From Atractiella rhizophila (lineage: Eukaryota), in contig MU271183.1 of NCBI GenBank assembly GCA_021432655.1, forward strand, positions 145,081 to 193,250: a DNA stretch of 48,170 nucleotides, read 5' to 3'. Below the pieces are notes generated by a model. That model was not told the DNA's origin, made no database searches, and worked only from the letters and a program-made list of their open reading frames with translations. Position numbers and translations under genes: made by a program. This document shows positions 6,617 through 47,068 of the stretch, one piece after another (the stretch's first letter is position 1; the number at the start of each line of letters is the position of its first letter).

Positions 6617-9465
6617 ATGTCCCTCCCCTCATACTACGTCTCTCCCGCCGGCTCAGACGAGTCGGGGGACGGAAGCCTCGAGAAACCATTCGCTTCGTTG
6701 TTAGGCGCCTTCACTGCGTTGAAGAACAGCGAGGTGAACCTGCTGGTCAAATCTGAACCGAAAGAGGGAGAAGAAGCGAAGGAGGAGTGGGTGCCGGCGA
6801 CCCAATCCGCGTTGAAGAAGTGGAGGAAGATCTACGAGACTCAGTTGCGAAAAGCTTCAAAGGCTGCCTCCACCCCGCCTGCCCAGACACCTGCTCCTGT
6901 CAACGCTGTGGATCCTGCGTCGTATAAGAAACCGGAACCGGAACCAAAGTTGGAGAGAAAGAGGATTAAGGATTTGAGTGAGGAGTTTCATGGGAAGAGG
7001 GTAAAGGTTGGAGGCTGGGTGCATAGGCTGAGAGCTCAGAAGGGCCTCGCTTTCGTCGTTCTGAGGGATGGATATGGGTATCTTCAGGCTGTATTTGCTG
7101 GAAAGGAACTGGTGAGTTTTCGTTTCGGAAAGGATGGGGCGTGATTTGCTGTTCAATTTGACACTGATAAATTTGCCTATTTCTAACTAATTCTTAATCC
7201 TGGTATCACCTACGGATGCCTTGATGTGGATAATAATGCGCGATTAGTACCTTTCACCATTCTTCTTTAGTTATTGTCATATTCTCTTCCAATTCACCTC
7301 CTTCATGAAGGTTCCAAAACGCGGCGCAGCTTGAAACAAGTTTACGCTGCCTCTAACACATTATAAATGCCCTTTCATCAAAAGAGGGAATAATCTTTCT
7401 AATGCTCGTGCGAGACGATTGCCAGATTCGTGTCGGAATTCCAACGCAAATAAAAAAGCTCCAGTTCAATGCAATGAACAATTTGAAGTTCGACGAGAAT
7501 GGTGCATCGATTTCCGTCGATGTTATGGCACTGGATGGTGAAGATAAGTCATGGGTGTAGTGGCTCGATCACGCTTTTGCTTTTTGTCGCTATTGTGCGT
7601 TCCGTTTCTAAGTATGTTCCGCGCAGAGACACTTTTCTGTTTGTTTCATATCTTCATTTTGTATGTGGGAGTTACTGCAGTTTAAGGACGGCGTGACGTT
7701 GGAGGGGCGTACGTCGCCTATGTACTGCCTGCCTTCTTCGACATATGACACTGCAGTCAGGGAATATTTCTGTTCTGACAAACACGTATCCATGGTTGAA
7801 AATGCGGTTGCAAGAGGGTTGGGACAACTATGTTTTACTTCCAGAGAAGGCGATCTTACATGCCTGAGCGACAGCTGCTCTTCCCTACTTCTACCTACTG
7901 GAATCACTTCTGTCTTGGTCTTGAGTTATTGCCTCTCCTTGTGCGATTCTAGCAAGGCATCAATCAAGCCGCTCGTCGTGCGGATCTGTCTCTCCCTTTT
8001 CACTCTCCTAGAAACTATGTGCTGACTTCTTCGAACCAGAGTTCCGCCGCCGCGAACCTTCCCGCAGAGAGTACCCTCTACTTGACTGGCGAACTGAAGA
8101 AAGTGCCAGAAGGCCAGACCGCACCTGGAGGCACGTCCTCCCTTTGTGGATTCTTTGAGTCTAATGATCACATTGTAGGACACGAGCTCGTCGTTGACTG
8201 GTTTGAAGTTGTCGGACTGGCGCCTGCAGAAGGAGAATCCTTCACCAACAAAATCCAAAAAGAAGCCGGACCAGAAGTTCTCGCCGATCTGCGCCACCTC
8301 GTCCTCCGAGGAGAGAACGCGTCCGCCGTTCTCAAAGTGCGATCGGCACTCATGCGCTCCTTCCGTCACACTTACGAAAACATGTCCATCCTCGAAGTCA
8401 CCCCTCCCTGTCTCGTGCAAACTTCGGTCGAAGGCGGCAGCACCCTCTTCCCCTAGACTATTATGGTCAACCCGCATACCTCACCCAATCCAGTCAACTT
8501 TATCTAGAAACTTGTTTACCCAGTTTAGGAGACGTTTTTACCGTCCAAGAGAGCTTTAGAGCGGAAAAAAGTCATACAAGGAGACATTTGAGCGAGTTCA
8601 CACATCTGGAAGCGGAACTCGCTTGGTTGAACTTTGACCAGCTCGTAGATCATATCGAAGAACTTGTACGCTCCGCTCCTCTTTCCTTTCGTATAGATGG
8701 AGCGCTCAAATGAGCGATAGATATGCTCGACTCTCGATCACCTCCTATCCGACCCAGCCAACCGCGCACTCGTCGACTCCCTTCAAGAAGAGGGGAAGCC
8801 TTTCGTTCCCCCTCAACGCCCATTCATCAGAATGGACTATCGGGAAGCCATAAAATGGTTGAACGAACACGGAATCAAGAACGATGTTGGGGAGGATCAT
8901 AAGGTTGGGGATGATATCAAGGAGGCGGCAGAGAGGAAGATGACGGATACGATTGGACGACCCGTCTTCCTGATGCGATTCCCGAAGGAGATCAAGAGCT
9001 TTTACATGAAACTTTGCCCTGGCGATGAAGCGTACACTGAGAGTTGTGATCTGCTCATGCCTGGTGTTGGAGAGATCGTGGGTAGGCAACACCGCCACCT
9101 GTTTTCTCAATGCCGCGCTGACGTGAAAATATAGGTGGAAGTATGAGGATTTCGGACCTCGACCAACTCATGGAGGGATACAAGAGGGAAGGCATCGATC
9201 CGACACCTTATTACTGGTTTACCGACCAAAGGCGGTATGGCACAACTGAACATGGAGGATATGGTCTAGGAGTAGAGGTGCGCCTTTCCATCCATACTCT
9301 AGCTCATGATGTACTAATCGGTTGATCTCAGCGGTTTCTGGCCTGGTTGACCAACAGGTACACAGTGAGAGAATGTTCGCTGTTTCCAAGGTCTGTTCTC
9401 CCTCTTATCATGACAATGTTCTCATTTTTGATGGATATAGATGGATGGGGAGAGCAACGCCGTAA
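6617..9465 (+). CDS. DED81: Cytosolic asparaginyl-tRNA synthetase (class IIb), with one apparent -1 frameshift at ~8453
   Basis: [20 protein letters not shown] (OB fold), [78 protein letters not shown]. Intron 1 spans 7112-8039. Confidence 0.95.
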
Positions 9466-9991
9466 TGTAGTGAATAATTTACGGAAATAGAGATGCTCCG
9501 TTTAATCAGTCTCTTGCCACGGGAACCATTATCAAAGATTCAATCTGAAGCTTCAAAACGCACTGTTGACATTGAATAGTGGAAAGGGGAGTGCATAGCT
9601 CATTAAGAGACGTATTCTAGCAATGATAATTTTTAACCATGAGGATCGTAAAGAGTAAACTTGAAAAGTTGTTCGGCTTCTCATCTCCTTCAGGATGTAC
9701 TACTCAACATGAATCTTTCTGCAAATGGGTCGCGACGCTTGGTAACTTTCTAGTAGCTTCTATTTCGCAAATTTGGAGAACTGATATCTTAAGGGAATCC
9801 ATGCTGGAAACACTGGCACGCACATAGTCAAGTCACGCCGGTCCTGACTCGTCGTCTGCTGGTCACCTTCCCTCACCCTCACCTTTTCCAGCACACTTTC
9901 AGCCCAACCCAGAGTTCAGAGTCTGCAATACCAGTGAGACGATCTACGCCAATTTGTTGAATCTCACTGATCAGATGTAAGAGACGGTATC

Positions 9992-11771: not shown

Positions 11772-14700
11772 TCAAGAAGTAGAATCCTCAACAAGATTAG
11801 CCTGCGTATCTTCTTCGTTTTCTTGCTCTTCAGTGTCATCCCTAAATATCCAATGCGCTTGGATGATGAGCAGTTTGATGGCAGAAGTGGCCTTTCCTAA
11901 GTTTTGCATTTGCACGCCAAATTGGGCATCCCCCGGAGCTGGCCGCATGATGGACGGTGCGAAAACAATCGCCTGGCATAATTGTAAGCAATTTAGCGGT
12001 AGGGGCTTCTAATACCTACCAGCGCATGAGGCTGCATGGAATTCTCTTGCTCATGGTCGCTAACCCTATAAGCAGATCAAACCTCCTCACCCTTGACAAA
12101 AGAAACTAAACTAACGTGAATAGATGTTCCATAAGCCGACGCAAAAGGAGAAAATGAGGTTGCGGCAGTCTCCAAACTAGGTCTCGCAATTGATACATCT
12201 TCTCATTGTAGTCCATGACGCCTACAATATTTCAGTGAGCGAGGCGCTCAGAAAGTTCCAAGGACAAGACAGACTTGCTGCGTCGATAAAACTTTGATAG
12301 AACGCATGAGGAATGACTGTATCAGGCAGCAGCCTGAGCCATAGTTTGAGCGCTCCCGTGACATTATGGCAATCGCTGAACGATCCATTCTCAAGGTCAA
12401 CGATCGCCGCACCTATGATCAATCTTTGGTATAGGTAAAGACACAGGACGGAAGGAGGGACAACTAACCTTTCTTGTCAAAAGCCTCCTTCATCGCATTG
12501 ATTACCTTATTCTCCCCTGAAATCCGATAAATGCCAACCTCAGCAAGACCTGAAGCCATTTGTCAAAGACAATTAATTCTGGGCAAAAAAATTACCTCGC
12601 CGCTCCACCACTGACAAACACTTCTCAACAATGAGAGGTATGGTTCCCTGCTCCTTCTCCAGCAAGTCATAAAGTGGGACACCATACACTAAACATCGTT
12701 GATCAGTCATGAGCGCCGAGGTCAGGAAAGACTACCGACCAGAGTTTTGCCCAGCCAATGGTTTCCCTTCCTTTATGAAATGCTCTGGCCGATTAGTCAT
12801 CTCAACTGGTGGCTGAGTAAGAAGAAAAGTAGCCCGTTTGGTCGCCAGAGTGATCGCAGCTTGATTGATCGCTTTCATCCACAAGTCCAGCTCATGCAGG
12901 TCTTTTGCTTGGAACAAGGTTCGATTGCCATCTTCCACTCCCAATTCGAACAAGAAGGATCGCTGGTTATTAGTGTATCTTGTGAGCGAAACTGCGTCCA
13001 GCGTGATCACCTGGTAAGGTTTCTGAGAAGTCGAGAGAGGATCAAAGGATCTTAAAGCGGACAGTGCTCTGTTGGACGGAACGATGAGATCTTGTGCACT
13101 AGAGTTCGAGGGCTTGACAGCTCTGAACAGCGCGGTCATTCTTTTCGAACGACCAACGACATTGGCACTTTGATCTGGAAGCTTCGTTAGATCCACTGCT
13201 CTGTCCCTCTCCTTTTCCTTCGCCTTCTGATCCCGCAACAGTTTGTCTTGAGCACTTCGGTCGCGACGTGCTTTGTCGTGTTGTTGCTGTACGAGGTTGT
13301 GGAAAGGACGTGGAAGCTTGCTCATGGACCGTTGTTGGCCAGGGATGGGAGAACTCAACCCTTCTTCGTATAGAGCGCAGCTTCGAAGGACTCGCATGGA
13401 AAGATTCCGTGGTTCAATAGTTCCCAGAAATGTATCCGGAGCTGCCCGACTTCTCTCCTTGTTCAAGCAATGCGTTATAAACCAGGAGAGGAGCTGAAAG
13501 CGCTGGAAATCGATTAGCTGATCTGTGGTGTCTCCAGTCTGGGTCTCACGCTTAGATTTTCCGTATGGTGTGAGGATAGACAATAATACTCACCCCGATG
13601 AGAACTTCCATCGAACGCTCTAAAATCCAGCCTAAATCGACGTGGAGGAAGGAGGTTTCAGTCATGCGATGCTTTGTGGGTTTTAAGAGGGTAATCAACG
13701 ACTCAGATGAACCTCCTCTCGCCTCCACAACGTTCTTCCAAGCGTGGTCAAACAATCGAGATTCTGGCGAAAGGAGAGCTGAAACAATTGCACGTTCGAC
13801 GAAGGACGGTATAAGAGATGCCAAAACGTCTTCATTAGCTCTCTTATGCTGCTCTACGAGCGCCATCCGTTGCATCCTCCTTCTGCAAACAACTATCGCA
13901 TCCAAATATCTCTCGATCCGCTCTTGTCGCTGCCAGACATTAAGGTCAGGGTCCGCCAATTCGGTCGTGAGCCACCGGACAATGGTTTGCCGAAGCCCAA
14001 GGTACATTTGGATAGATTCACTGAAACGCTGTAGAAGGATGTGGAGAGTGAGGTAGATATCCGCTATTAGCACTTCAGAATCGTCACCCAAAGTTGTTGG
14101 TCGAAATGGGTGGTAGCCTCTGGAAGACCTCCCAATAGAATACATGACGTGAATGGCAGAATAGAGATCTTGTTCGCTGATGTTTTTACCTCGCAGTCCG
14201 ACCACTGCGTCCAGCTGTGACACCAAATCCTCAGCGGAAAGATCTCCAACCTGCAACCTTCGTTGGACATCACCCTTGACAAGCGGTGTTGGGGAAGGCA
14301 ATGGTCTAAGGCCGTTTAGATCGAATGATCGGACTACATCAGCCACAACCTTCCGGTAGCTCTGCGCACTTGCCGAGTTTGTTGAATCTAGCGGTTGACG
14401 ACGGAGCTGTTCGAGAAAATCAATAAAAGTTCGAGACAGCATCGGATCATCCTTGAAATCCTGAGGGGAGAATTCTATCCATGCTTTGAATGACAAGAGA
14501 GCGAGCGTCTCAATCTGGCGAGTTTCATCAGTAACGGAGGTTGAGTTCCCTGTCCAACTGGGAAAAGGATTCGACGAGGTTGTACCATCGGAAGCAGCAC
14601 TTGGAGCTCCTTGGAAGCGCTTCTTCAGCTCAGTGAAAAGATTCATGGGGGACGTGAGAGCCCTGAAACTCTTGAAGAAAGTCTCGCGGAAATCGTCCAA

Positions 14701-17700: not shown

Positions 17701-18522
17701 TTGCGAGGACCCGAAAGCGGGAACACTGAGCCCGGTTGGCGTGGCAGGGGCGGAGGAAGGGGGAGGGAAGCGGGAGAGATCGTCTGCAGATTGGGAAAAG
17801 ACTTTCTTCAACTGATACCACAAGTGTTGATCAGCACAAGCGCGGGAAATGGGAACGGGTCGAAGGAAGAGTAGAAATGGGAACGGGTCGAAGGAAGAGT
17901 AGAAATGGCGTACATTACTTAGACCACCTTTCTTCTCCCTCTCCGCCCTCATATCTTCTACCTCCTTAGGGATAGCAAAGAGCGATCCGCTGCTCTCGCT
18001 CTCGCTCATGCTTTCCTTCTTTCCCTTCTTTCCGAACGCTAGCACCGCGACTGGGACATCAGGTTTTGTCGAGCTCTTGCTCCGACCCCACATCTTCCCT
18101 CCACCTGCGACCTTCAGATCTTTTGACTGAGGAGGAGGAAGGGAGGTAGATGCAGAGACGGGAGATGAGGTGGGGAAGGCTACTCCGCCACTCCTCTCCT
18201 CGTTGCCGTTAGCGTTAGGGAACGTCCCTGCTTCACGGTTCGCGTTGTTGCCGTTTGCATTCTTCGGTGCCAAAGCAGCCTCTACCGGAACAGTCCCGAG
18301 AGTGTTGGACCTGTCGCGTTTTCCTGGGTTGTTGAAGCGGGAGAAGATGCCGAAAAATGGCTGCGAGCTGGAGGAGGTCATGCCCTCCTTGTGTGACGGA
18401 AGAGTTGGGGAGCTGGGAAGAGTCGGAGAGGTGGGAGAGGTAGCGGATGCAAGTTTGCCATTAGAGAGGGAGTTAGATGAAGAGGAAGAAGTGAGATGTT
18501 GCTTCTTTCGAAATGGGATCAT
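11772..18522 (-). CDS. Bem2-like multidomain GTPase regulator (PH-like, RasGEF/RasGEF_N-like, PH, C-terminal RhoGAP)
   Basis: 1699-aa ORF with WKPFKAVLKGSKLYLFK and TVKSGTLERLLDILV; PH end LFQAKDLHELDLWMKAIN; RhoGAP exons VYGVPL..IPLIVEKCL, GIYRISG (Arg finger), VTGALKLWLRLLPD, AIVFAPSIMRP. Start codon choice is uncertain. Confidence 0.82.
17846..17908. repeat. Exact 28-bp tandem repeat (2.25 copies) inside a 102-nt intron
   Basis: gaaatgggaacgggtcgaaggaagagta twice, plus gaaatgg. The intron is 17812-17913 on the minus strand. Confidence 0.9.
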
Positions 18523-28273: not shown

Positions 28274-31200
28274 ATGTCACTCAAGCTCCCATCAAAGACT
28301 GGCCTCCCCCTCTTCAAAGAGGGCTACACCTTCTCCTCCGGCCTCGAAGAGTCGATCATCCGCAACATCCAGGCGCTGTCCCAGCTCGCAGAGATCGTGC
28401 GCACGAGTTATGGGCCACAGGGGAGGAACAAGATCGTGATTAACCACCTGGATCGTACCTTCGTCACCAATGAGGCGTCCACCATCTTGAGGGAGTTGGA
28501 GGTCGTGCATCCTGCCGCGAAGATGGCGACGAGCAATGTGGAGGCGATGGGTGAAGAGGTTCGTCTTTCTCCTCTTGAGACGATGGAAAACGCGGAGACT
28601 GCCTTTTTTGAGCTTTCTTTTGAACAGAGCACAATGTGATTTAGTTGTGTTTGTAAATCTTGAACAAGAAGCGCGTCAATATCCGAAAGCTTTCCTTTCA
28701 TTCATGATCTACTTTGACTCCTTTTGGAGGAGTAAATGGTATTTGATAAATACCTTTGATTGATGACACTTCCTTTTAATGTCGCCAAAATGATTGAAGG
28801 ATTGCATCGGATCATATGCCTACTATATGCTTCTAGCTCCTTTCTCCTTCCCTTCTAAGCGAGTGCTTACAGATGAAGAAGACATCTGTCCTCATATCAC
28901 TACAAGAAACGACTCATACAGTATAATTTTGTAAACACTTTCTGCCTTCATCCCTTTCTAAACGAAAAGTTGCGGTAGACAGATCTTCGTGGACTGTGCA
29001 CTGATCCAGCTGTATTGCATTTTATTCCTCCTCTCAATTTCCTTTCCAAACAACAACACTCTTGTTACTCATCAGAAGTCTCTCCTCCTGTCGTATTCCC
29101 CACAAATTGCTGCCTATTCCGTTGCTGAAACCTGAGCGGTGTTCACCGTTTACAACGCGACGAACCACTTTTGGGAGCAGCTGAGGGCAGGTCGAGCTGA
29201 TGTGTTCTCGCTCCTTTGACGATGCCTTGTAGTTGCAGAGTCTGTCCCCTCCTTTAACTACTACATGGTAGTAGCGTGCGTTACATTTAGGTCGTCAGAG
29301 CACGGCTCGACTTTCAAGCTTGTTCTACCCGCAGGCTTTGTCTGCTTCCTAAATGCTCGGGACAACCCGCTAGTAGGGTGGATATTCAGAACGTTCATGA
29401 GATCAATCTGTTTACACATCCGATGATGAGAGGACGAATGGGAAAGCGATGAAGTCAGCTTACGCTCGACTAAATGTTAAACTGAATGCTGCGAAAGAAC
29501 GCATCATACTGACTGAGCACGCATGTCTTCAGTCGTTTCTCTTTCTAGTCCTCTCATCAAAACATCTTCTCTCTATCTAAAACCCTAGACGACATTCGTA
29601 CAGAGGCACTGACTGTTGTTTATTCAGATCGGCGATCGCTCCAACCTCGTCCTCATGCTCTGCGGAGAGCTACTGAAGAAGTCAGAGTCCCTCCTATTGA
29701 TGGGCCTACACCCTTCGGAGATCGTAGAGGGATGGGAGGTTGCAGGTCAAAAGTGTCTTCAAGAACTTGATTGTCCGTCCTTCATTTCACGAAGCAGATG
29801 TCAGACTGACAGAAACGAACCCTACCTAGCACTGGCCGTCCAGACGCTACCGATTCCTCCCACGACGGAAAGCATTACGACCCTACTGAGGACCGTTTTG
29901 GGAAGCAAACATTATGGCAACGAAGATTATGTCAGTTCACTCGTCGCTGAAGCCGTTCTTCAAGTTCTCGTGCGTCTATTTTCTGTATTGTTGCTTCCAA
30001 TTGACGCTTCTCAAAGCCCAATGACTTGACGAAATTCACACCCGACTCCATTCGAGTGGTGAAGATTATGGGCGGTTCATTGTCTCAGTCGAAGGTGGTG
30101 AAAGGAATGGTCTTCCCTCGTGAACCTGAAGGTATGTTCGGTGATAGTATGTGAAAGTGGATTCGAGCAATATCATAGGCAGCATCAAGCGTGTGACGAA
30201 TGCTAAAGTTGGAGTCTTCACCAGCGGAGTCGACATTGCCACGACGGAGACGAAAGGAACCGTTCTGCTGAAGAACTCGGAGGAGCTTTTGGGCTTCAGT
30301 AAAGGGGAAGAGGAGCAATTGGAGAAGGTTGGTAGCCTTTCCTTTATTTCGCGGGTATTGAAGCTAGGTTCGATAGACTATCAAAGAGCTCGCCGATTCT
30401 GGGATGAAGGTCTTGGTCGCGGGTTCGACAGTTGGTGACCTTGCCCTTCATTACCTTTCCAAATACTCCATCCTCCTCCTCCGCATACCCTCCAAATTCG
30501 ATCTCCAACGTTTATGCCGAGTCGTAGGCGCTACTCCTCTCGCCCGTCTCGGTGCTCCCACGGCAGAAGAAATGGGCTACGTCTCCGTTGTCGAGGCGAT
30601 CGAGATTGGTGGGGACCGGGTGACTGTCTTCCGGCAAGAAGAGGGCTCAGATTCTCGCACCTCTACCATCCTCCTGCGGGGAAATACAACGTCTTATCTC
30701 GATGCTCTCGATCGATCTATTGGATCTTCCCTCCATGTCGTTAAGGCGATGCTTCGGGACTCAAGACTGGTGCCAGGTGCAGGAGCGACGGAGCTGGAGC
30801 TGAGCAAGAGGGTTGCTGAGTTCGGAGAGAAGACTGCAGGCATGAAACAACATGCCATCAAACGCTTTGCAGATGCGTTGGAAGTCGTACCTAGGACTTT
30901 GGTCGAGAATGCTGGCGGTGGAGGTGCTGAGGGTTCAGAAGTGATGGGTCGCTTGTATGCACGACATCAACAAGCAGGAGGGGAAGCGATTGGAGTAGAC
31001 GTCGAGGTATGCATTTCCTATGTTCCCTAGATCTTCTCTCACGATTAGCAGGGTGAGGGAGACGGCACACTGGACACGAAAAAAGCTGGAATATATGATC
31101 TCCTCGTTGGAACACAATGGGGTATCAAACTTGCTGTCGACGCAGCGACTTCAATTCTCCGTGTAGACGGTATCATCATGTCCAAGTACTTCGTTCTCTC

Positions 31201-31286
31201 TCATTTCGAAACGTCAACTAAACCATCTGTTTAGGCCGGCTGGGTTGAAAGCACCGAAACAAAACCCGAACTGGGATGAAGATTAG
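28274..31286 (+). CDS. CCT8: Chaperonin CCT/TRiC theta subunit
   Basis: LFKEGY..SGLEE, RTSYGPQGRNKIVINHL, ELEVVHPAAK, IRVVKIMGGS, TETKGTVLLKN, SKFDLQRLCRVVGATPL, VPGAGATELEL, C-terminal NPNWDED*. Intron 1 spans 28559-29627. Confidence 0.96.
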
Positions 31287-31722: not shown

Positions 31723-34700
31723 TCTGATGGCCGACAGGGATAGAAAACTGTCAGCCGCGAGACAGCGATTCCTAGCAATGATAAGGCTTCGAAGTATATG
31801 TAGCCTAGGAAAGGTGAATGCGGGTTCCAATAAAATGGTGTCTAATTCTATGCGAAAGAGGTTAAATGGTTCGCTGCTATTGCTCGTGTTGTTCCAGTTT
31901 CAATCAAAATATCGACGTTGAATACAGAAACATGGCAATTGCAAATGGTTCCGTTCACATTTTGGGCTTCAAGCGGTCAAGTCACACTTACCAGGGTGAT
32001 ATGCGCACCATTCGCTCTGGAGCATAATAGTTTGAATGCCCCTCCTCTTAGCACGGTAGCTATTCGTCCACCAATCAGCATCAAATATAAGAAAGGGGAC
32101 ATGACAACCGACCTCCAGTCATGAAGGCGAGGAAGCGCCTCTGCAACGTCTCCACCTCCACTCCACCAAAGCTCACCTGCAGCGGCAGCTCTGGGCCTGT
32201 TTCCATCCGTTCAACTCCTTCCCATGAAGTAGAAAGAAATATTCACCAGACGATGCTGTCCACGTTCTCCGGCCCAGATTGTTCTGCCCATAGCAGTGTT
32301 TGACCTCCAATGACGAGATCTCTTTTATCATCCGTGACATTTGCGTAAGGGTCGAAGGCGTAGATGTGTTGCCATGTCTTGAATGGCGCACACCAAGAAC
32401 CACAAGTTGGACAGTCGCCAACCCAACCTCCGGCTCCACCTGCAAACGTCTCAGTAAATAGAAGTTCGAGGGAAAATAGACAGCGGCCTACAGTCGAGGT
32501 AGAAATAGTTTGACGCGGCGTGAATGATCTTGTAGTTAGCCTCGATCGCTTCTTTTACGAAGGACGAATCTCGCCAGACAATGACGAGGGACTCGTTGCT
32601 GATCTGGTGGGTTTGACCGACCTGGTGATTCAACGCAATCTCGTCCCAAACGGCGGGAACCTGAGCCCTTTCTTAATGAATTGAACATTGGGAAGGACAG
32701 GCGAGACCTTGCCGTTCTTCGCCAGAGACTGATGAGTCTTTACGACGAAGTTGGTGACAGCATCTTCAATCGTCCAGTTTTTAGCGGCTAGCAAATCCTG
32801 TGTCGGTCCATCATTGTTGTAGCAGTTCAGGTTCTACAGTTGCCAGGATTGAGAGGAATGTCGCAGTAAAGAAATCAACGGGCTTACAACTTCATCTCCC
32901 CCAGTGGAGAAGTAATGACCTTTGCATAATCTCTCAGCATGGTTCAGAGCACATTCATATTTGTAAAAGCTCACCCGGAGTAAGAGACGTCAACTCGTCA
33001 AACAATCCCGCCACAAATTCAACACCATCATCCGTCAACCTCACTTGTCCTGACGGCGGTTCCGCGGCGTAAGTTCCCCAAGGCGAAGCCTCAATGCACG
33101 CTCCAAGCTCAGGGAAAGCCTTTCCGACAGCCGACATATGACCAGGACTGTCCACCTCAACCATGGTGGTGATTCCGCGCTCTTGAGCGTACTTTAGGAC
33201 TTCTACAAAGTCCTTTTGGGAGTAAGTTTGTTCGGGGGAGAAGGCAGCGGCTTCGGAAAGGAGGGAGTAGGGAGCTTTAGAGAGGGAGAGAGGGAAAGAG
33301 TTGGAATCGACGATGTGCCAGTGGAAGACGTTTAACTATTGCGCCGATGGTCAAGGGGGAATGAATATTGAAAGAGTCGTGCACCTTAGCATAAGACATA
33401 GCATCCAGCTGTCTCTTCACCGCATCCAGAGGGAACCAATTCCTTGAGGTATCCAGAAGGAAGCCTGTCAATCACTCTCATCAGGACGTCCGTGCAAGTA
33501 AACAGCGAACGGATCAAGCATACCACGATACGCGAAGGCAGGCTTGTCCTGGATCTTCAACGGCACGTCGACGATGTACCTGTCCTTCTTACCCTTCTTC
33601 GGCAATTGATACACGAGTTGACTGAAGCTCTCCAATCCTCTCAGGAATCCCAGGGCAGGCAACTAGAAAATAGTAGAACATTCCAGAAAACTAAAGAACT
33701 TTGCCACTGAGTGGCACGAAACTAGACTGCAAAATCCAACAGAAACTCATCTGATGGCCGACAGGGATAGAAAAACTGTCAGCCTCGAGACAGCGATTCC
33801 TAGCAATGATAAGGCTTCGAAGTATATGTAGCCTAGGAAAGGTGAATGCGGTATCCAATAAAATGGTGTCTAATTCTATGCAAAAGAGGTTAAATGGTTC
33901 GCTGCTATTGCTCGTGTTGTTCCAGTTTCAATCAAAATATCGACGTTGAATACAGAAACATGGCAATTGCAAATGGTTCCGTTGACATTTTCGGCTTCAA
34001 GCAGTCAAGTCACACTTACCAGGGTGATATGCGCACCATTCGCTCTGGAGCATAATAGTTTGAATGCCCCTCCTCTTAGCACGGTAGCTATTCGTCCACC
34101 AATCAGCATCAAATATATGAAAGACAACCGACCTCCAGTCATGAAGGCGAGGAAGCGCCTCTGCAACGTCTCCACCTCCACTCCACCAAAGCTCACCTGC
34201 AGCGGCAGCTCTGGGCCTGTTTCCATCCGTTCAACTCCTTCCCATGAAGTAGAAAGAAATATTTACCAGACGATGCTGTCCACGTTCTCCGGCCCAGATT
34301 GTTCTGCCCATAGCAGTGTTTGACCTCCAATGACGAGATCTCTTTTATCATCCGTGACATTTGCGTAAGGGTCGAAGGTGTAGATGTGTTGCCATGTCTT
34401 GAATGGCGCACACCAAGAACCACAAGTTGGACAGTCGCCAACCCAACCTCCGGCTCCACCTGCAAACGTCTCAGTAAATAGAAGTTCGAGGGAAAATACA
34501 CAGCGGCCTACAGTCGAGGTAGAAATAGTTTGACGCGGCGTGAATGATCTTGTAGTTAGCCTCGATCGCTTCTTTTACGAAGGACGAGTCTCGCCAGACA
34601 ATGACGAGGGACTCGTTGCTGATCTGGTGGGTTTGACCGACCTGGTGATTCAACGCAATCTCGTCCCAAACGGCGGGAACCTGAGCCCTTTCTTAATGAA

Positions 34701-35677
34701 TTGAACATTGGAAAGGACAGGCGAGACCTTGCCGTTCTTCGCCAGAGACTGATGAGTCTTTACGACGAAGTTGGTGACAGCATCTTCAATCGTCCAGTTT
34801 TTAGCGGCTAGCAAATCCTGTGTCGGTCCATCATTGTTGTAGCAGTTCAGGTTCTACAGTTGCCAGGATTGAGAGGAATGTCGCAGTAAAAGAAATCAAC
34901 GGGCTTACAACTTCATCTCCCCCAGTGGAGAAGTAATGACCTTTGCATAATCTCTCAGCATGGTTCAGAGCACATTCATATTTGTAAAAGCTCACCCGGA
35001 GTAAGAGACGTCAACTCGTCAAACAATCCCGCCACAAATTCAACACCATCATCCGTCAACCTCACTTGTCCTGACGGCGGTTCCGCGGCGTAAGTTCCCC
35101 AAGGCGAAGCCTCAATGCACGCTCCAAGCTCAGGGAAAGCCTTTCCGACAGCCGACATATGACCAGGACTGTCCACCTCAACCATGGTGGTGATTCCGCG
35201 CTCTTGAGCGTACTTTAGGACTTCTACAAAGTCCTTTTGGGAGTAAGTTTGTTCGGGGGAGAAGGCAGCGGCTTCGGAAAGGAGGGAGTAGGGAGCTTTA
35301 GAGAGGGAGAGAGGGAAAGAGTTGGAATCGACGATGTGCCAGTGGAAGACGTTTAACTATTGCGCCGATGGTCAAGGGGGAATGAATATTGAAAGAGTCG
35401 TGAACCTTAGCATAAGACATAGCATCCAGCTGTCTCTTCACCGCATCCAGAGGGAACCAATTCCTTGAGGTATCCAGAAGGAAGCCTGTCAATCACTCTC
35501 ATCAGGACGTCCGTGCAAGTAAACAGCGAACGGATCAAGCATACCACGATACGCGAAGGCAGGCTTGTCCTGGATCTTCAACGGCACGTCGACGATGTAC
35601 CTGTCCTTCTTACCCTTCTTCGGCAATTGATACACGAGTTGACTGAAGCTTTCCAATCCTCTCAGGAATCCCAGGGC
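31723..35677. repeat. Near-identical direct duplication ~1.93 kb (31723-33656 and 33750-35677) with a 93-bp unique spacer
   Basis: Both copies start tctgatggccgacagg and end aggaatcccagggc, with only scattered SNPs and small indels. Confidence 0.96.
31969..33656 (-). pseudogene. 5'-truncated second copy of the GH20 hexosaminidase gene (or the alternate haplotype)
   Basis: Nearly identical to 33997-35677 but lacks the start codon, signal peptide and most of the N-terminal domain. Confidence 0.75.
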
Positions 35678-36218
35678 GGATCCTGCCTCAAGAACAGCCT
35701 CCCCCTTTTGCGGTATTGTTAACGAGTAAGCTTCATCCCACTCCTCTAGAGGTGCATTCGTCTCCTCTGCCACGGTCTTCAACGTCCCCTTAGGAATACT
35801 GGATTCCGAGACTGCGCGTGGGAGAGCCTGGAAGCCAGGCAGGGCAAATTCAGCTTCATTGCCTGCAGCTGAGCGTTTGGTTTTTGGAGAGGAGAGTTTG
35901 AGGACGAGTGCGCTGAGTGTATCGGCGGAGGAGACAGCGGATTCGTCCTCTGCACCACGGGAAGGTATCATACGCCCATGCTCGTCCTTTATCAGGTGTG
36001 ACTTCGTCCGGTCGACTGCTTTTTGGAGGTCCTATTCCATCATATTAGCTCAAATTCATTCGAGGATGTTGGATTCGCACAGAAGGAGCATGGAATCCAT
36101 TCGTTCGTATGCCAAATCCATCTGATAGCCTTACAACTCCTTCTCCCTTCTGGAAGGAAACTGGCGCGGGCCACAGCGCGAGAGCGGCCGGAAGCAGGAG
36201 TGGTAGAAGGAGCATCAT
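33997..36218 (-). CDS. Beta-N-acetylhexosaminidase, GH20, secreted
   Basis: Signal peptide plus LWPAP; IQDKPAFAYRG|FLLDTSRNWF, FHWHIVDSNSFP, EVDSPGH, catalytic FSTGGDEV, YFYLDC, SWCAPFKTWQHIY, GGQTLLWAEQ, VWPRAAA, SEWCAYHPGKCDLTA*. Confidence 0.95.
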
Positions 36219-39200
36219 TATCCTTCTTGCTCGTTGTGGGTTCGACTAGGTGTGAGTGAGAACAGCAATTGCTCGGGATGAGCTGGTTTTGTTGGATGAC
36301 CAGTTTCACCCTAGCGGGCTTAGAACGTCGTGGCGGCCTTGTTTAAAGTGGGGAGGTACAGCGCTCGGAGACTGACTAGTACAGCTAGAGCATTATGATT
36401 ATGGAGGGAGATCAATCCTTGCGTTGTTGATTAATTGTTGTCGAGGAGCACTGCACGCGCCATGCAATCAAGGAGCAACTCGGAATTCAACTTGCGACAC
36501 CAGGTCCACACAAATTGATGGAGTCTCGCTTGGTTCGACAGTCTGTTACTGTATGCTTGTGAAAGCAATACTGTAAACCAGGTTGGCAAGTTGATGACCT
36601 GAAGGCCAAGTGAACTTGAAGCGGGTTGAAGGGAGGCAAGTGGAGGACGGAGAAACGTGCGCTGGGGACAGGTTTGAGCAAAGAGATCAGATGAGGACAG
36701 CTTACAACAATGTGCATACAATAATGTTGCCCTAAGTTATTTGTTATCGTTAGTGATCCACTAGGCAACAACTTGTCCTTCGAATGAAGCAGGTGTGCTT
36801 CAAGTGCCTGCGTGTCTCACTTCAAATCGCGGTACAAAAGCCTCACGATCGGGATCCAAATATCGACAAATATCCTCCACACTACCTCGTGAAATCCTGC
36901 ATCCATGGTTGATCATGTTGTACGTAAGCTCCACACTTGAGGCGACGGGATCACAGCACCTTGCACCGCCTTCAGCCAAGAACTTTGAAGTAGAAGCTGC
37001 TCGTTGTGGTCGGGACTCGGAGAGTTGATATGCGCAGTCTGGCGGGATCCAGGACGTTCGGCGTTTAAAAGATACTTGGGGGATGGTGGCCGGAGCGAGA
37101 GGGCAGCTTGCCTCTGGGCAGAAGGTGCCTGTGCGTTGTCCTGTCACCTCTCTCGTCAATCATAGCCGGAACTCTTCACTGATTCGTAGCCTTAGACAAG
37201 ACTTCCAGCCGAAATCGTGCCTGAGCGAGACTTCTGGCGAGAGTTGATGCAGATGAGTGTCGAGTGACTGTCAGGTAAAGACATTCATGTCTCATCTTTC
37301 CGGACACAACTGATATGCCACCATCAGCAGAAATAGATGCATTAGAAGAGAATCCAACATGCTCAACAAAGTCCATCAATGGTCAGAGCAGATTAAGCCC
37401 TGTCTCTCCTCAGACCTCAATCCACTATTATTGCTGGCAAGACTCCGCTAAGAGCTTTGTTTATGCGGGTGGAGGAGCAGAGAAGGTGCGTGAAACTGTA
37501 TGAGATAAATAGCCTACGGGTTTGACGCCTGCGCCGCAGATACACAAATAGAAGAAGAACCAGCCCTCTTCCAACACTACAGCTTGCTGGAGAGGCAACA
37601 TACGTGTACTCAGAAGGCAGCACCCAGCATCCCCTCTTTAAAGACGCGTACAACCTCACAAACTGTGTCTTGTTCGAACTGGAGCCGACAAGATCATGGC
37701 TACAGCTCAACAACAGCAATCGTCCTCGCCTGATCAGAAGTCCATATATCGGTTTCGACTTTCATGGAAGACTATCCCACGAACCCTCCCATGTAAACGT
37801 TCAATGCCTCCCCCCATAAGCCAGCGCCGCTCTCGTTCTGCTGTAGACCAGCCGAAGAGGTACTAATGGTGATTGTGTGGAGCGGAATTAATCGTATGGA
37901 AGAGGTTTGGAGAGGAACGGGCTCTGAGGTGCGCTAACACTTCATTCTACTTCAGAAATGGGTCAAAGCAACAGTTCAAACTGCTTGCTTACATTAAACC
38001 CCAGAAATGGATAGTCGGACTCGCTCGTTCGAAAGTCTTTTCTGGAAAGCCCTTGCTCGTTGAGAGCTATGATCAAAACTCCCAATAAAATAGAGAGCTT
38101 CGAAAGATCTTGTGAAGAGTGAGGCATCATACGCCAAAGATAAAGAATCAAGAGCAAGATCACAGCTACTTGATCATTTGGCGAAAAAGAGCCAAAAAAG
38201 TTTGCCCCTCTGGTTTGATAATAAACTCGAATGAGACCAGAGTACCACTGGAATGAATGCCACTGCTGAGAGAAAGCAGAAAACGATGGCGAAACATCGT
38301 ACAATAGAAAAAGCTTTATTTCAGGCTGGAAGAAGTCCCATTGTCCTCCACTCCCTGATACAAAAGCTCAGTCAGAAGAGATCTCACCGCGATATCCAAA
38401 GCCGTGACCCCTAAACATGTTCCCTCATCCCCTATCGAACATCAAAACTCATCCCATAGCGTGGGTCCTTCCTCGCCCTTTCATCCTGCGTTGAAGTATC
38501 GGCTCAGATGGTTGAATCTTCAGGCATGTTAGGGAGGACTAGGCGAGGACATAATGCAAGGGAGACATGGGAGACGTCGTTACCTGTCAAAGTGAATGTG
38601 GAGAAGAGAATGCGCGTCACGCTTTCGATCGCGTAAAACGCAACGGAGCGCCTCAAACGCCACAAATCTAAAAGAGATTGGGAACACGTATGCAACCTTC
38701 TCCAGCTCTATAAAAGACTTGCGTGGTGATTGTGACACCGTAAGAGAGTGTGAAGGTGAGATATGTGGAATTTTCGATTTTTCTTAGTCTTTTGCAATTT
38801 TTTTTCTCAAAGAGGCTAGAGAGCGTCTCTATATCTAGCGATAGGGGCATTACCTTCAAGAGCCCATCTACAGGAACTCTGAGCTGCTTAAAGCTCGCAG
38901 GTGAGAATTTTATTAGAGTGATGGGGGATTTCGGGATGAGACCCATTTGCCCCCGCGACTTCCGGTTGGTTGGTTTCTTCGGATTTTCTCTCTCATACGC
39001 ATGTGGTCACCGTAAATCTCTTATCATATCTTCAAGGAGAACGTATCATGGCTCATAATCAGACGGACGATTGATGTTCACGACTTGGTGGTTTGTGACC
39101 ATCGCTTGATGATAATTAGGATTGTCGTCATTGTGTCTCAGTTGTAATTAGCCTGGGAAAGGGGCTTTCTCACGAAATCGAAAGATAAAACGTGATATAA

Positions 39201-39264
39201 ACATTACAAAAAGTGTAATAAGCAAAACAAGAATTATAGTGTCCTGATACAAGATCAGACGTCC

Positions 39265-39271
39265 TATAAAA
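39265..39271 (+). promoter_or_regulatory. Putative TATA box (TATAAAA) of the orphan gene at 39417
   Basis: Consensus TATAAAA followed by CT-rich sequence, ~150 nt upstream of the ATG. Confidence 0.5.
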
Positions 39272-39416
39272 GGCCGGTCGCTCAGCTTAGCTCTCCCTCC
39301 ACCAACGACCACTCTTCTACACTTTTACCTTTCTTGATTAGCTCTCTCCCGAGCAACTTCTTGTTTACAAGCTATCTGCAGCGTATTTTTATCCACGGTA
39401 CTACTAACAGTCAATT

Positions 39417-40263
39417 ATGGCTCGATCCACGAAGAACAACTTGGCGAGAGCTCGTCCTACGCTCTCTTTGAAGGCGATGAAGAAGTAGGTGCCCTCTCCC
39501 GACTCCTCCTGCATATTTCCTCTCCGCTGGTAACGATTCTGACGAGAAATCACCTAGGAGCTCGAAGACGGCGGCGGCGAGAAGTCATGCAAAGAAAGCT
39601 CGACAGGCCAAGATCAAGAAGGAAACAAAGACGACAATCGAGCAACTAGCCACGAGTGCCGCCGTCACTCCTCCCACGTCTCCTCAAAGGTGCACGAAAG
39701 TTCGACCTCCCCATCCTCTCGCCAAATTTATGTACGCCTCTTTCTTCTCCCGTAGTTCAATACTGTGCGCTAACACCTTTCAATGGGGAATAGTTCTCAA
39801 AATACCGAAGAGAAGGCTGACTCCGACTTTGAGAAGTCAACTCACATCCAGAAAGCGTGGGACGACGATGAGGACTCCAACGCTTCCAATATCATGTCTG
39901 CCGAGTGCGTTTTCTCTTCTCCCTTTTCTCTCCTTTGTCTTCAACTTAACTTTATTTGTGAAATTTTGGGCTAGTCTGGCCCATAACTTCTACTCGAAAG
40001 TGGAAATCACCCAACTGCACATTCCACCTCCTGCAACGACGTACGTATTCATTCTCCACCATCTCATGTTCTCGAAAGTCTAATGCTTGTCGTTTGGGAC
40101 AGTTGCACCCCCAAGTTCTTCTCAAGGGTGGAAATTATCGAACTACAAGCACATGCTTCTGCGTCAGTGTGCGTCTCGTCTTCTGCCTTCTGCTCTACCT
40201 GTTGTCAATCGTCGCTTACTGATATTTGTTTGGGGAGACAGGTATGGTAATGCCTCAACCTAA
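39417..40263 (+). CDS. Small orphan protein with Lys/Arg-rich N-terminus; six exons
   Basis: Five GT-AG introns, all phase 2, join an open frame MARSTKNNLAR..KKARQAKIKKE..SQNTEEKAD..NFYSKVEI..KFFSRVEI..YGNAST*. Followed by a T-rich 3' region. Confidence 0.7.
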
Positions 40264-41216
40264 GCGAGTAATCTCAAACATTTGACCCTGTTTAGCCTGC
40301 CTTTATTTTGTGGTTTGATCCATGGTCCATAGCTTAGTTTGATCCGTCTTCGACATTTCTGATATTTCTTTCCGCATCTCGTATTACTCTCCCTCGTTCA
40401 CCTGGACTCATTTGTCCATCCCTCATCACGGTTGTACGTTGTCATTCCTTCTCGGTTGAGGTTACGCTACAACTTCCATGATTCCTTTTCATTTTCTTTT
40501 CATCTTGTTCTCTCTCGAATTTCACATGAGAACATTGTCTCTGTGTGCCTTTTGAGTGTTCTTTGTGTCTGTGTTCCGTCTCGATTTCTCCTCATTCAAC
40601 TCTTGACTTCAAGTTTCTTGAATGATCTTACCAATTCCTTCTCTCAGCCTCTTCGTGTATACCAATTCGAATCCGTCGTGTGTTATCCTCGATGGTCCGT
40701 CTCCCTTTTCTCGATCCATTTGCTTCGACTTTAGTCGTCTCATCTTCTCACTTCCGTCGTTTCTTCCACATTTATCTTAGCTTGAGTTTTCGCACTATAA
40801 GTTATGAGCGACTGTTGTTGTGAGTGTATGAAGAGCATAGTTGTTGTAATGACCAAGCCATAAGCTATAGTACTTGTTCAAACCTCTTCTGCGATTAGTG
40901 AGATTCGGCGGTGACTCTGAACATATCTATCTATAAGGATTAAGCTTGTCATAGATCTGTAGCTGGGACATAGACATTGGCGTTTCAACGGTCACTGGTC
41001 ATAGAAGTCATACCCCCACTGAAAACATTCAAGCTCAAGCTCCCAAGCAGATGATCGTAATGGCTTATGAGGTACACGTTACGATGACTGATCCTGGGGG
41101 TATTCCATTCCACTGATTGCAGCCAGGAAAGCATTTGTGAATTAGTTGAAAGAAATGTTCTAAACAAATCCAATGCAGGAAACATATACAGTGATGTAGG
41201 ACAAGAACATACAAAA

Positions 41217-42219
41217 TCATCCAAACATGCTGTTGTGCGACGACTTCCGCCTTGTCCAACTGCCCTGTCCCATCAACGACTTAGCTTCGTCTATCATTCT
41301 AGCGTGTCCTTCAAAGTTATCAGGTGCCTCCTGGATAAGGCTCTGAATCACAGAGGCAGCTTTCCACGGAGCATAACAACCGTCTTCGACTCCATCAGTG
41401 GCCGTTCCAGCCCTCCTGATCTCCTCCCACAGCCCTATTCCATCTTTCCACTCTCCCCTATCCGGCTCCCACATTCTCGCCCCGATGAAACGCGAGTGAA
41501 TATCCCAGTCATCACGTAGCGATTGTTGACGTTCCTCCACTTCTTCTTCCTCCAGGAACTGCGGAAACAGAGCCGCGAGTACGACTTTACGAGTTTCTTT
41601 GGGACCTAGTTCAGCTGGAGGATCATGATAAGGTCGCTCTTGTAAGCGGATCAAGTCGACGAGTGGCCGTCGACGCTCCATGATTTGATGCCGCCAAAGT
41701 CCAATGGTAGGCATGGGAAGTTGGTGGACAGAGAGGAAGTTCTGACTTCTCGTCCAACACAATTAGTCAAAGCTAGAATGGCAGTAGTGGAAGGACAAAA
41801 CCAGATAGGGCAGCAGGAGTTATCGGCAAGCCACTCATGTATGCAGCTCTCGTCGACGTCATGTCCGCAAGGTAATCGAATAATCTCTTGCTCGACGTGG
41901 TAGCGTTCGCCGCAAATGCAGCAGGAAGGTTCTGATCCTCCAGTTCGTCAGAACGTTGACAAGCGATCCAGAAAAACACACCCGGAGCCTCAGTCGCCTT
42001 TATCCGTTTTGCTTTGATATTCTTACCATACATCTAATCCTTTAATCAGCTCTCGCTTTCTCCTCCTGGACGACAGAAGAGGAAGCTTACTTCCGGACGT
42101 ATCCCACGATGAAAATCCGGGCGACGAATTTCAACTGGTCCATCGTGCTCTATCTCACTATCGCGACGGAAGCGCTGGTCTGGGTCTTTGAATACGTGGG
42201 TCGACTGATTATTGCCCAT
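41217..42219 (-). CDS. Hypothetical protein starting MGNNQS; three exons
   Basis: Exon 42219-42091 ends at a GTAAGC donor and splices in frame to MYGKNIK.. (42033), then to the ~175-aa exon ending 41217. The second donor is unresolved. Confidence 0.6.
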
Positions 42220-42729
42220 GCTCCTTTTGAGTTTTTGGTGGATTTAGGATAGGGGAGAGCTAAGTAAAATACCTGCCAGGTTTTGAACAATGGTAAGGAA
42301 GAGCTTGTAAAAGTTGGTAATTGCTTTGCGTACCTTGTGGTTTTTATGCCTTATCCTCAGCCCAGCCCTTTTCTCTCTCACATAGGAATTACAAGGCCAC
42401 CATGAACCCAACCTTTGTCTCCTGTTCCTTTGTTCTCTTGTGCACATGCGCAGCAAACTCTGCCCAAGTTGAGATTAGGTTCGGTAAACTTTCCAAGCAA
42501 CTGGCGTGGGATTTTGTCTGTGCTGGATATTTCGAACCGTGCATCACCGTGCTCAAAGGACACAGACGCAGCACAGACCATGCATGATAGCGTCGACAAT
42601 CGAAGAAAATTGGGAACAAGGGGGGGGAAAAGAACCGCAACAAAAGGGGTGAGCAGGAGTGCTCTGAAAATGGAGCAGTGGATGGACCTGGCTGAGAAAA
42701 AGGAGCGGTGAAATTGCAACAGAAAGGTG

Positions 42730-45106
<2,377 letters not shown>

Positions 45107-45685
45107 GCTTCTTCTAGTTCGAGCGTGGAGGAGAGGCAAGAGAGTGGCTGCGAACGGAGCAAAGAACCGGCAAAGAACGAACACCAATCAAACAAGAAAG
45201 CAGACGAGAAGACAGATTTAAGATTACGGAACTCAAACTACGGGTAGGCATCCAACGCAGAAGGAAATCATCTGGAGCTTGAAAACGTCGGGCGTGATCG
45301 CTGTTGTTGTGGTCGTGGTCGTATCAGTAACTCACCGAAAAGGATGATGATATCACTTCAGCTGAACGCAATTCAAATCAGTCTCGTTTTCGTAGAGCAT
45401 CAGACCATTTCGAAACATGGATCCTGTTTGTATACGTTCCTATTGCTATTTCAGCTTTCTGAAACCAACGCAGAGCAAGGATATGACTTGTTGGTCTTTA
45501 TTGTAGAGGACTCAGATTGATCAAGCAAGGTGATGACTCGAATTCGAAGGTGGTAGTGGTACTTCCAACGAAGAAATTATATACATTTACACCGCTATCA
45601 CTAACACTGAGCCATACAAGTAATAGACACTCTGTCTTGTCACTTGCGTGCTCTCTGAACCACGAGTTGCACGATCGAACGGAGA

Positions 45686-47068
45686 TCAATTTTTCCCCCT
45701 CCCTCTCCCCCTTCCACGCCCCCGATCCCCTCCCCTCCCTACACTCACCGTGAGCTGGTCAAGAGAGGAAAGGAATAAGAGCCTACCGCGTCCTCTACCA
45801 CCGTCTCCCTTCTTCTCCGTCCGCTGCCGCTGTGCCTGGTGCTCTGCTTCCATTTGCGCGCGAAGGGCATCGATGACTGAATCTGCGACGCGAACGTACT
45901 TTATCTGAGGAACAGTGCGGCGCATCAGATCATATTGATGGAGAAATGGCAGCGGGGGACGAACCGTATTTCCACGAATGTAGACTTCGTCCATTTTCCA
46001 GAACTTGTCCCCTCTCTATCCCCCACGTCCCAAGTATCAGTTAACGACCTGGAAGAGAAGCAAAGAGCATAAGTTCTATGATAGGTTAGGGGAGTCTAAC
46101 TTGTGCAGTCTTTAAAACTTTTCTGTAGGACACGGGTTTTTGTTGTGCAAAGAAGTAACACAAGAAATCAAAATAACAAGGGGACAACCGAATTATCCTC
46201 ACCCTTCACTGCTGTAGCAGGTATTGCGGGCCTGCAGGGTAAGGTGATTTCGATAGCACAAGCTATTGCACTTTTACTGGAAAAAGCAGTCTAGGACGGA
46301 TGAATAGAATTCGCGTCAGCTTCCTTTGGGCTACCGCATCTCATGCTTCGGGACGATCATGCGTCAAAAGTTTTGACGATTCTTCGAGGATTGCGCCTGC
46401 GAAATTAGCTGCATGAATCATAATCGTCGTAATGAGATAGACATGAAGACAAGCAAGCAATTCCTCAGATGTCAAAATGCTTTTTTAGAAGAGATAAAGC
46501 GGTGCCTTAATCATTAACAGGAATAACCTGAAAACTCAGTAATAAACGTCACAGACGACGATGCAGCATCGCTTCATGACCAAAACACTGCCAACAATCA
46601 CAAACACTTGAAGCCAAAAGCACACTCAAACAGTTAATTCATCCACACGACCTAGGGTGTAGAACCCAATGTATGTATAGAACCACCATGCCCTCATTCA
46701 TCTCGCATCGAAGAAACACTCACAGCACTTGTCTGGAACACCTCCCGCAAGAGCAGGTTCATGAAATTATCGCAGCTCTGTAAATGGCCATTGAAAGTCT
46801 CTCCATTCTTCAATTCGACAAAGAGCAGGTTCATGAAATTATCGCAGCTCTGTAAATGGCCATTGAAAGTCTCTCCATTCTTCAATTCGACCAGCTATCC
46901 CCAGCACGAAAAAAAACCAAACGGCACTTCATCAGTGCTACTGCGAGGGAGGTAAGGGAGAGTTGCAACCATAGGCTTGTTGGACGCGGATTTGAGAAGC
47001 GCTAGCGGGAGCTGCAGAACAAGACATAGGTATTAGTTCCTGCATACACATGGAGGGTAACGAACCAT
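45686..47068 (-). CDS. LSM4: U6 snRNA-associated Sm-like protein LSm4
   Basis: [38 protein letters not shown]..|[23 protein letters not shown] plus an RG-rich tail. Long intron at 46016-46723. Confidence 0.95.
46749..46891. repeat. Exact tandem duplication with 72-bp period in an LSM4 exon
   Basis: 46749-46819 is identical to 46821-46891 and duplicates [23 protein letters not shown] in frame. Confidence 0.97.

Follow-up and report, generated by a model that had tools for sequence, protein, structure and literature searches.

A stretch of 48,170 nucleotides (nt) from the fungus Atractiella rhizophila (assembly GCA_021432655.1, contig MU271183.1, positions 145,081 to 193,250 of the forward strand; hereafter the window) carries four genes in which a single long intron stands near the 5′ end among introns of about 50 nt. 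These genes encode cytoplasmic asparaginyl-tRNA synthetase (AsnRS), T-complex protein 1 subunit theta (CCT8), a mitochondrial-type tyrosyl-tRNA synthetase (TyrRS) and LSM4. The long introns are probably ordinary U2-type introns that are constitutively removed, lie at the long end of the host's range of intron lengths, and have been expanded and tolerated. An earlier reading of the bare sequence, referred to here as the original prediction, had singled them out and proposed either a distinct functional class of intron or a tolerated landing site for decayed mobile DNA. Its observation was confirmed in each detail open to checking, and its interpretation was partly supported; none of the tests that were run supports a special functional class. 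The coding sequences and their long introns, with positions counted from the first letter of the window, are as follows.

6617..9465, + strand: AsnRS coding sequence; introns of 928, 48 (GC-AG), 55, 53, 54 and 50 nt
7112..8039, + strand: AsnRS long intron 1; 928 nt, phase 0, donor GTGAGT, branch-like CTGAC 14 nt from AG
28274..31286, + strand: CCT8 coding sequence, 549 amino acids; introns of 1069, 57, 47, 47, 49, 45 and 49 nt
28559..29627, + strand: CCT8 long intron 1; 1069 nt, phase 0, donor GTTCGT, branch-like CTGAC 15 nt from AG
42730..45106, − strand: TyrRS coding sequence; introns of 648, 44, 55, 53, 48, 45 and 47 nt
44256..44903, − strand: TyrRS long intron 1; 648 nt, phase 2, donor GTGAGT, branch-like CTGAT 15 nt from AG
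45686..47068, − strand: LSM4 coding sequence, 145 amino acids as assembled; introns of 54, 75, 708, 60 and 48 nt
46016..46723, − strand: LSM4 long intron 3; 708 nt, phase 0, donor GTGAGT, branch-like CTGAT 21 nt from AG

Contigs from three RNA runs (X3, X5 and X6) and one DNA run (X1) were mapped on positions 28171–48170 of the window, where 15 of 53 splice joints were examined. Run X1, near-identical to the window, could stem either from the source strain or from a sister strain. The CCT8 structure was read from RNA contigs containing all seven joints, and the joined exons form an open frame of 549 codons. RNA joints likewise defined LSM4, whose joined exons encode an Sm-domain protein of 145 amino acids with an RG tail; its fifth intron (45739–45786) was deduced from a loose end of an X3 contig at 45782 together with the reading frame. 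The structures of the two synthetases follow NCBI models of A. rhizophila. Exon 1 of AsnRS is 100% identical to model P0001, the exons of which mapped exactly, and its exon open reading frames (ORFs) match the Pfam families AsnRS_N, OB-fold and tRNA-synt_2. A TyrRS exon is 99% identical to model P0010, which also mapped exactly onto the window; the exon ORFs match tRNA-synt_1b, and an RNA joint is present for the 48-nt intron.

The four genes contain 25 introns, of which 21 are short (44–75 nt, median about 50) and four are long (928, 1069, 648 and 708 nt), with none of 76–647 nt. As had been predicted, there is exactly one long intron per gene, and it is 13–21 times longer than the other introns of these genes. 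The long intron is the first of six in AsnRS, the first of seven in both CCT8 and TyrRS, and the third of five in LSM4. That at least three of the four should be first by chance has p = 0.015, a figure that refers to genes picked for having a long intron and, like the other tests given below, to 25 introns only. Distances from the ATG to the long-intron donor, derived from exon and intron coordinates, are 495 nt (AsnRS), 285 nt (CCT8), 203 nt (TyrRS) and 345 nt (LSM4), in agreement with the anticipated 200–500 nt. The companion claim, that other genes of the window lack such introns, was weakly checked: the polyprenyl synthetase gene (GGPPS), which is likewise conserved, has apparently short introns only when inspected by eye, and no other skip longer than 150 nt was seen among the examined joints of the 28–48 kb part.

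Some local irregularities were noted in these same genes. Intron 2 of AsnRS (8131–8178, + strand, 48 nt) is apparently of the GC-AG type (GCACGT...TAG); no other pair of boundaries yields the APGG|HELVV of the NCBI model. An AsnRS exon contains an apparent 1-nt frameshift in the catalytic core at about 8409–8458 (+ strand), where the frame reads ...VEGGSTLFP* and resumes in another frame; the NCBI model passes over it by means of a spurious, roughly 50-nt intron, thereby losing 16 residues otherwise conserved in homologues, and the frameshift is likely a homopolymer error in the assembly. Exon 3 of LSM4 (46749–46891, − strand) contains a perfect in-frame tandem duplication of 72 nt (24 codons) within the Sm1 motif (Tandem Repeats Finder: period 72, 2.0 copies, 100%). 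RNA contigs of X3 and X5 skip from 46819 to 46970 with three letters between, indicating a single copy in LSM4, so that the duplication is either spurious, made in assembly, or very recent and confined to the strain. Finally, at positions 28399 and 28459 in exon 1 of CCT8 the window reads G and C, respectively, and all four runs, one of DNA and three of RNA, read T at both; the cause would be base errors in the assembly or a true difference between the assembled strain and every run.

Precise removal of the long introns is documented by RNA joints for CCT8 and LSM4, and by gene models and homologue alignments for AsnRS and TyrRS, all four having GT..AG ends at the predicted borders. In CCT8, a joint from 28556 to 29626 (“cut +2”) skips exactly 1069 nt bounded by GT..AG, and was found in X3 (depth 599) and X5. 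In LSM4, a joint from 46015 to 46724 skips exactly 708 nt, bounded by CT..AC on the + strand, and was found in X5 (depth 311) and X6. Depth of X3 RNA was 1.78 in the CCT8-intron bin versus 467 and 869 in the adjoining bins, and 21.6 in the TyrRS-intron bin versus 260 and 94. The AsnRS and TyrRS junctions are those of models P0001 and P0010; homologues align without gap over residues 68/69 of TyrRS, and with a one-residue gap over residues 165/166 of AsnRS.

The DNA run provides evidence for three of these introns. Since X1 covers the long introns of CCT8, TyrRS and LSM4, these are not artefacts of the assembly, and X1 contigs span exon–intron borders of TyrRS (43831–44376) and of LSM4 (45989–46561, a stretch that is identical). 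The presence of the three introns in X1 also means that they are not polymorphic recent insertions there. Their sequence does vary slightly, with indels of −26, −4 and +2 nt in the TyrRS intron and single-base insertions (+1, +1) in that of LSM4; such small indels fit weakly constrained introns.

The signals of the long introns are those of U2-type GT-AG introns. Three donors read GTGAGT, as the original prediction had it, and one GTTCGT; all four introns end in YAG; and, at the level of motifs, CTGAC or CTGAT is found 14–21 nt from the AG in every one. The GTGAGT donor occurs in three of the four long introns versus none of the 21 short ones (Fisher p = 0.0017). A CTRAY motif within the last 45 nt is present in all four long introns versus 8 of the 20 short introns scored, out of 21 (p = 0.09). 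The long introns are more AT-rich than exons, as had also been noticed by eye, with a GC content of 0.43–0.44 versus 0.525 for the CCT8 coding sequence and 0.486 for the whole window. On the sense strand they contain 0.32–0.33 T and 0.23–0.25 A, the corresponding values in short introns being 0.33 and 0.21, and the excess of T over A is positive in most of their 100-nt bins. When GTGAGT was used as a marker across the window, 16 sites were found, four of them with coding sequence upstream, and no further long intron was detected. The four coding-flanked sites are those of the AsnRS and TyrRS introns and those at 2690 and 45748. The site at 2690 was rejected as an intron donor, lying in frame within an ORF that continues to 2806, and the one at 45748 was rejected as the donor of a new long intron, being located in the 48-nt last intron of LSM4.

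One of the introns was compared with relatives. Metagenome contigs queried with exon 1 of CCT8 yielded 80 loci, all of them distant (43–62% identity) and none from a sister species, and the site of the long intron (residues 95/96) was covered in 78. Two loci did not cover it, 73 were intronless there, and five (L013, L026, L045, L047 and L053) had an intron at the identical site, with 47–71 nt between the matched exon segments. None of the 80 loci showed an intron-like gap above 200 nt at CCT8, the largest being 103 nt. The short intron at the identical site in five relatives indicates that the site is old and the length lineage-specific, the A. rhizophila intron being about 15–20 times longer than its positional counterparts.

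These data suggest the following sequence of events. Each intron would have begun at about 50 nt, a starting point for which relatives lend support in the case of CCT8 alone, and would have grown in the Atractiella lineage through insertions or duplications whose source is no longer recognisable. Near-consensus signals (GTGAGT donors and CTGAC or CTGAT 14–21 nt from the AG) may make such length tolerable: signal strength is known to go with intron length, and strong signals could let the spliceosome pair ends that lie 0.65–1.1 kb apart in a genome otherwise geared to introns of about 50 nt. The 5′ location would follow the general rule that first and 5′-proximal introns are the longest. That the long introns appear confined to housekeeping genes is to a good extent a matter of ascertainment, because without RNA data exons separated by about 1 kb can be joined in conserved genes only. 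The early position and the strong donors emphasised by the original prediction are thus both real, and both are known general trends, while the association with gene class is partly due to how the genes were found. As an account of the introns, tolerated extra DNA is plausible.

Several observations weigh against expansion and tolerance of ordinary introns. A smoothly falling tail of lengths would be expected to hold more introns in the middle range than above it, yet in these genes nothing lies at 76–647 nt and four introns lie at 648–1069 nt; on that premise the chance that all four exceed 647 nt is below about (1/2)^4 = 0.06, a modest hint from genes chosen for having a long intron. Such an intron in four of about 16–17 genes in 48 kb also looks like a high density for a fungus whose introns measure about 50 nt. 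Together, the gap in length and this density may suggest a real second length mode in this genome, and the like composition and size range of all four introns would also fit a maintained class. The comparative data come from CCT8 only and from distant relatives (44–56% identity over exon 1). For TyrRS, no joint across the long intron was present among the 15 of 53 joints examined, and the AsnRS intron lies outside the RNA-mapped stretch, its junction resting on the model and homologues. The mechanism of growth is one that we infer.

In one alternative the introns form a maintained class: long and 5′-proximal, they would carry elements that act on transcription or chromatin (by intron-mediated enhancement, as promoter-proximal enhancers or through nucleosome spacing) and would so hold the expression of constitutive genes high. 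All four donors lie within 203–495 nt of the ATG, presumably a promoter-proximal position of the kind associated with intron-mediated enhancement, and each host gene is a conserved, constitutive one. The discontinuous lengths (44–75 versus 648–1069 nt) and the similar GC content and T excess point the same way, and passages of two published studies propose that 5′ introns hold regulatory elements (PMC2518113, PMC5677156). However, when the introns were compared with each other by blastn-short, only chance matches of 9–10 nt were obtained (E ≥ 1.6), and nothing longer than 10 nt is common to the four. GGPPS, a conserved enzyme gene, seems to have short introns by eye; the CCT8 site holds a short intron in five relatives and none at 73 loci; the TyrRS intron tolerates indels of up to 26 nt in X1; and the link to gene class is skewed by how long introns could be detected. 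We regard a maintained class of this kind as unlikely. The all-vs-all alignment and the Infernal/Rfam search that the original prediction had put forward as checks revealed no shared sequence and no match, and its distinct functional class drew no support from the tests for non-coding RNA and recursive splicing described below (no Rfam match, no ratchet motif, 56 of 57 folding windows ordinary).

A more specific form of the same idea holds that A. rhizophila has, in many of its constitutive genes, discrete 5′-proximal introns of 0.65–1.1 kb with consensus donors, kept for expression through intron-mediated enhancement or as chromatin spacers, so that intron lengths in the genome would be bimodal. 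In this single 48-kb window it would apply to four of about five conserved genes, whose long introns would have grown out of ancestral ones near 50 nt in length and would now be maintained for boosting or stabilising expression. This proposal is unlikely to a similar degree as the general one.

Expansion could alternatively reflect independent insertions of mobile elements or introner-type sequences into short ancestral introns, still polymorphic if recent, or decayed beyond recognition if old. Insertion would be the easiest route to a sudden gain in length, and the CCT8 intron is about 15–20 times as long as its counterparts. This intron also contains an inverted repeat that could be a foldback remnant:

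29424..29559, + strand: imperfect 136-nt hairpin in the CCT8 intron; 12-bp perfect basal stem, 29424–29435 with 29548–29559

The hairpin folds with −50.7 kcal/mol (z −4.25), and none of 200 shuffled sequences folds as well; it may be a foldback remnant, a small-RNA precursor or a product of chance. The motif of its arm, TGATGAGAGGACGAA, was considered as a repeat family and rejected: allowing up to 3 mismatches there were 13 matches versus 2.3 expected, made up of the hairpin arms (29424–29438 and 29545–29559) and scattered purine-rich sites with 2–3 mismatches.

Other traces of mobile DNA were sought and not found. No terminal inverted repeats or target-site duplications were detected at the ends of the four introns, and no tandem repeats within them. 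The original prediction had seen neither common homology nor terminal repeats among the four, and sequence comparison agrees. No second copy of any long intron, identical or nearly so, was found in the window. The 17 intronic ORFs of at least 60 amino acids matched no Pfam family and hence neither transposase nor reverse transcriptase. Among 1.84 billion proteins the longest of them (137 amino acids, AsnRS intron) had three weak matches (E from 1e-7 to 2e-4), the best to a repeat protein in which an internal repeat was matched 11 times and the others to an Ig-domain protein and a 292-amino-acid protein, and these were judged to be chance. The introns show no signature of repeat-induced point mutation and no CpG depletion, their indices being like those found elsewhere in the window. 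If they were recent, randomly oriented inserts, they would not be expected to share the sense-strand T excess that extends over most of the length of all four introns, and retention of the CCT8, TyrRS and LSM4 introns in X1 speaks against polymorphic insertions there. Relics of independent insertions are improbable to about the same degree as a genome-wide class kept for expression. Of the landing site for decayed mobile DNA first envisaged, the tolerated extra DNA fits better than a functional class, and the mobile DNA left no trace that we could find.

It is also conceivable that the introns host small non-coding RNAs, such as small nucleolar RNAs (snoRNAs) or microRNA-like hairpins, released after splicing. 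Intronic snoRNAs are common in fungi. The stable hairpin of the CCT8 intron would be one candidate, and the same intron holds the sole RTGATGA C-box-like motif in the 3353 nt of the four introns (0.41 expected), with CTGA motifs 59–90 nt downstream. However, this motif lies within the hairpin, paired in the 12-bp stem by the fold reading, the putative guide region is self-folded, and no terminal stem was found; the site is a poor candidate for a C/D snoRNA. The other three introns lack any C box. Rfam gave no match for the four introns, whether at the gathering score or, with each intron searched singly, at E ≤ 1, and none for the hairpin; this is a weak negative, as Rfam covers basidiomycete snoRNAs poorly. 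The whole window gave a single Rfam match at E ≤ 5, at 11859–11891, outside the introns. Folding in 150-nt windows was unremarkable in 56 of 57 cases, all 56 within |z| 2.6, and the only window with z below −2 was that of the CCT8 hairpin. Neither a family match nor a box architecture with terminal stem was thus present, H/ACA boxes not having been scanned systematically. Moreover, a snoRNA would explain 80–250 nt of extra length, not 600–1000. A role as hosts of non-coding RNA is very improbable.

Regulated splicing, in which recursive splicing, poison exons or programmed retention would tune gene output, is the least credible account: retention of any of the four introns would bring a stop codon within 2–79 nt and hence couple it to decay, and long introns in short-intron genomes may be prone to retention, but the introns contain no recursive-splice motif (AGGTRAGT or YAGGTRNG) and no internal YAG|GTRAGT ratchet site, no alternative joints inside introns were seen among the 15 of 53 examined, and RNA contig depth in the introns is near nil, a weak negative in that contigs drop rare isoforms.

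The genes surrounding these four were mapped by Pfam on ORFs. Across the whole window 300 of 351 stop-to-stop ORFs of at least 60 amino acids were scanned. The 51 unscanned ORFs include seven at intron edges (28295–28675 and 28411–28701 on the − strand; 29549–29767, 44777–45019, 44793–45218, 45881–46069 and 46656–46952 on the + strand), which merely overlap an intron border. The resulting map contains about 16–17 genes: AsnRS, GGPPS, a large RhoGAP/PH/RasGEF gene, two multicopper oxidases, CCT8, two tandem copies of a GH20 hexosaminidase, a RING-finger gene, TyrRS, LSM4 and several ORFs devoid of Pfam matches.

Repeats were noted at three places among these neighbours. The two GH20 beta-hexosaminidase genes, at about 32100–33700 and 34200–36030 (− strand), are about 2020 nt apart and have matching ORF patterns, the Pfam family Glyco_hydro_20 matching the first copy. 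DNA run X1 has no depth over 32173–33506 and a spike of 3657 in 33507–34173, and the duplication may be collapsed or different in that run. Upstream of CCT8, a 265-nt tandem duplication (2.0 copies, 95% match) occupies 27275–27798, a region free of Pfam matches. The ORF of the Bem2-like gene contains a perfect 28-nt tandem repeat (2.2 copies; 17846–17908, − strand) within a frame of 1701 codons, which stays open.

The four introns can be compared with several known systems. Introners occur as families of near-identical copies and would explain the sudden appearance of introns in unrelated genes; the four introns differ from them in sharing nothing longer than 10 nt, and the CCT8 site is old, being shared with distant relatives. 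Saccharomyces cerevisiae has two size classes of introns, the long class (about 400 nt) being found in ribosomal-protein genes and containing “zipper stems”. A zipper stem is described in the abstract of PMC12311795. As in that yeast, the long introns of A. rhizophila lie near the 5′ end of highly expressed housekeeping genes in an otherwise short-intron genome; unlike there, none of the four hosts is a ribosomal-protein gene, and no zipper stem joining the 5′ splice site and the branchpoint was found. One 12-nt pairing (92%) touches the CCT8 donor and may be chance. Within the four genes there are 21 short and four long introns, with none between, and a genome-wide second mode is putative. 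If a separate mode of 0.6–1.1 kb tied to constitutive genes proved true, A. rhizophila, with introns of 50 nt as its default, would offer a fungal system in which to ask why some 5′ introns stay long, be it to enhance expression or to no purpose.

The closest parallels are general rules of intron length. First introns are longer across eukaryotes, fungi included, with an average excess of about 40% according to a passage of Bradnam and Korf (2008; PMC2518113). The A. rhizophila genes agree in that the long intron is the first of the coding sequence in three of four and lies less than 500 nt from the ATG in all, and differ in the size of the excess (13–21-fold) and in having no intermediate lengths in the same genes. 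In 226 core genes of Fusarium, as a passage of PMC5677156 reports, introns measure 42–529 nt with a median of 57, and the longer ones are mostly 5′ in the coding sequence. The likeness extends to conserved core genes, a short median and long introns at the 5′ end; that fungus is an ascomycete with a maximum of 529 nt, whereas this is a pucciniomycete with four introns of 648–1069 nt in 48 kb. Splice-site information in fungi increases with intron length, as stated in a passage of PMC1713244 citing Kupfer (2004), which is in line with GTGAGT in three of four long introns versus none of 21 short ones and CTRAY in all four, albeit for just 25 introns from genes chosen for a long one. A literature search on A. 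rhizophila listed no paper on its introns or gene structure. The pattern is already implicit in public gene models and in these published rules. For annotation it implies that a gene finder set for introns of 50 nt may overlook a first exon lying behind such an intron, and the four introns stand as a clean, verified case of known rules, in a root endophyte that has been little studied.

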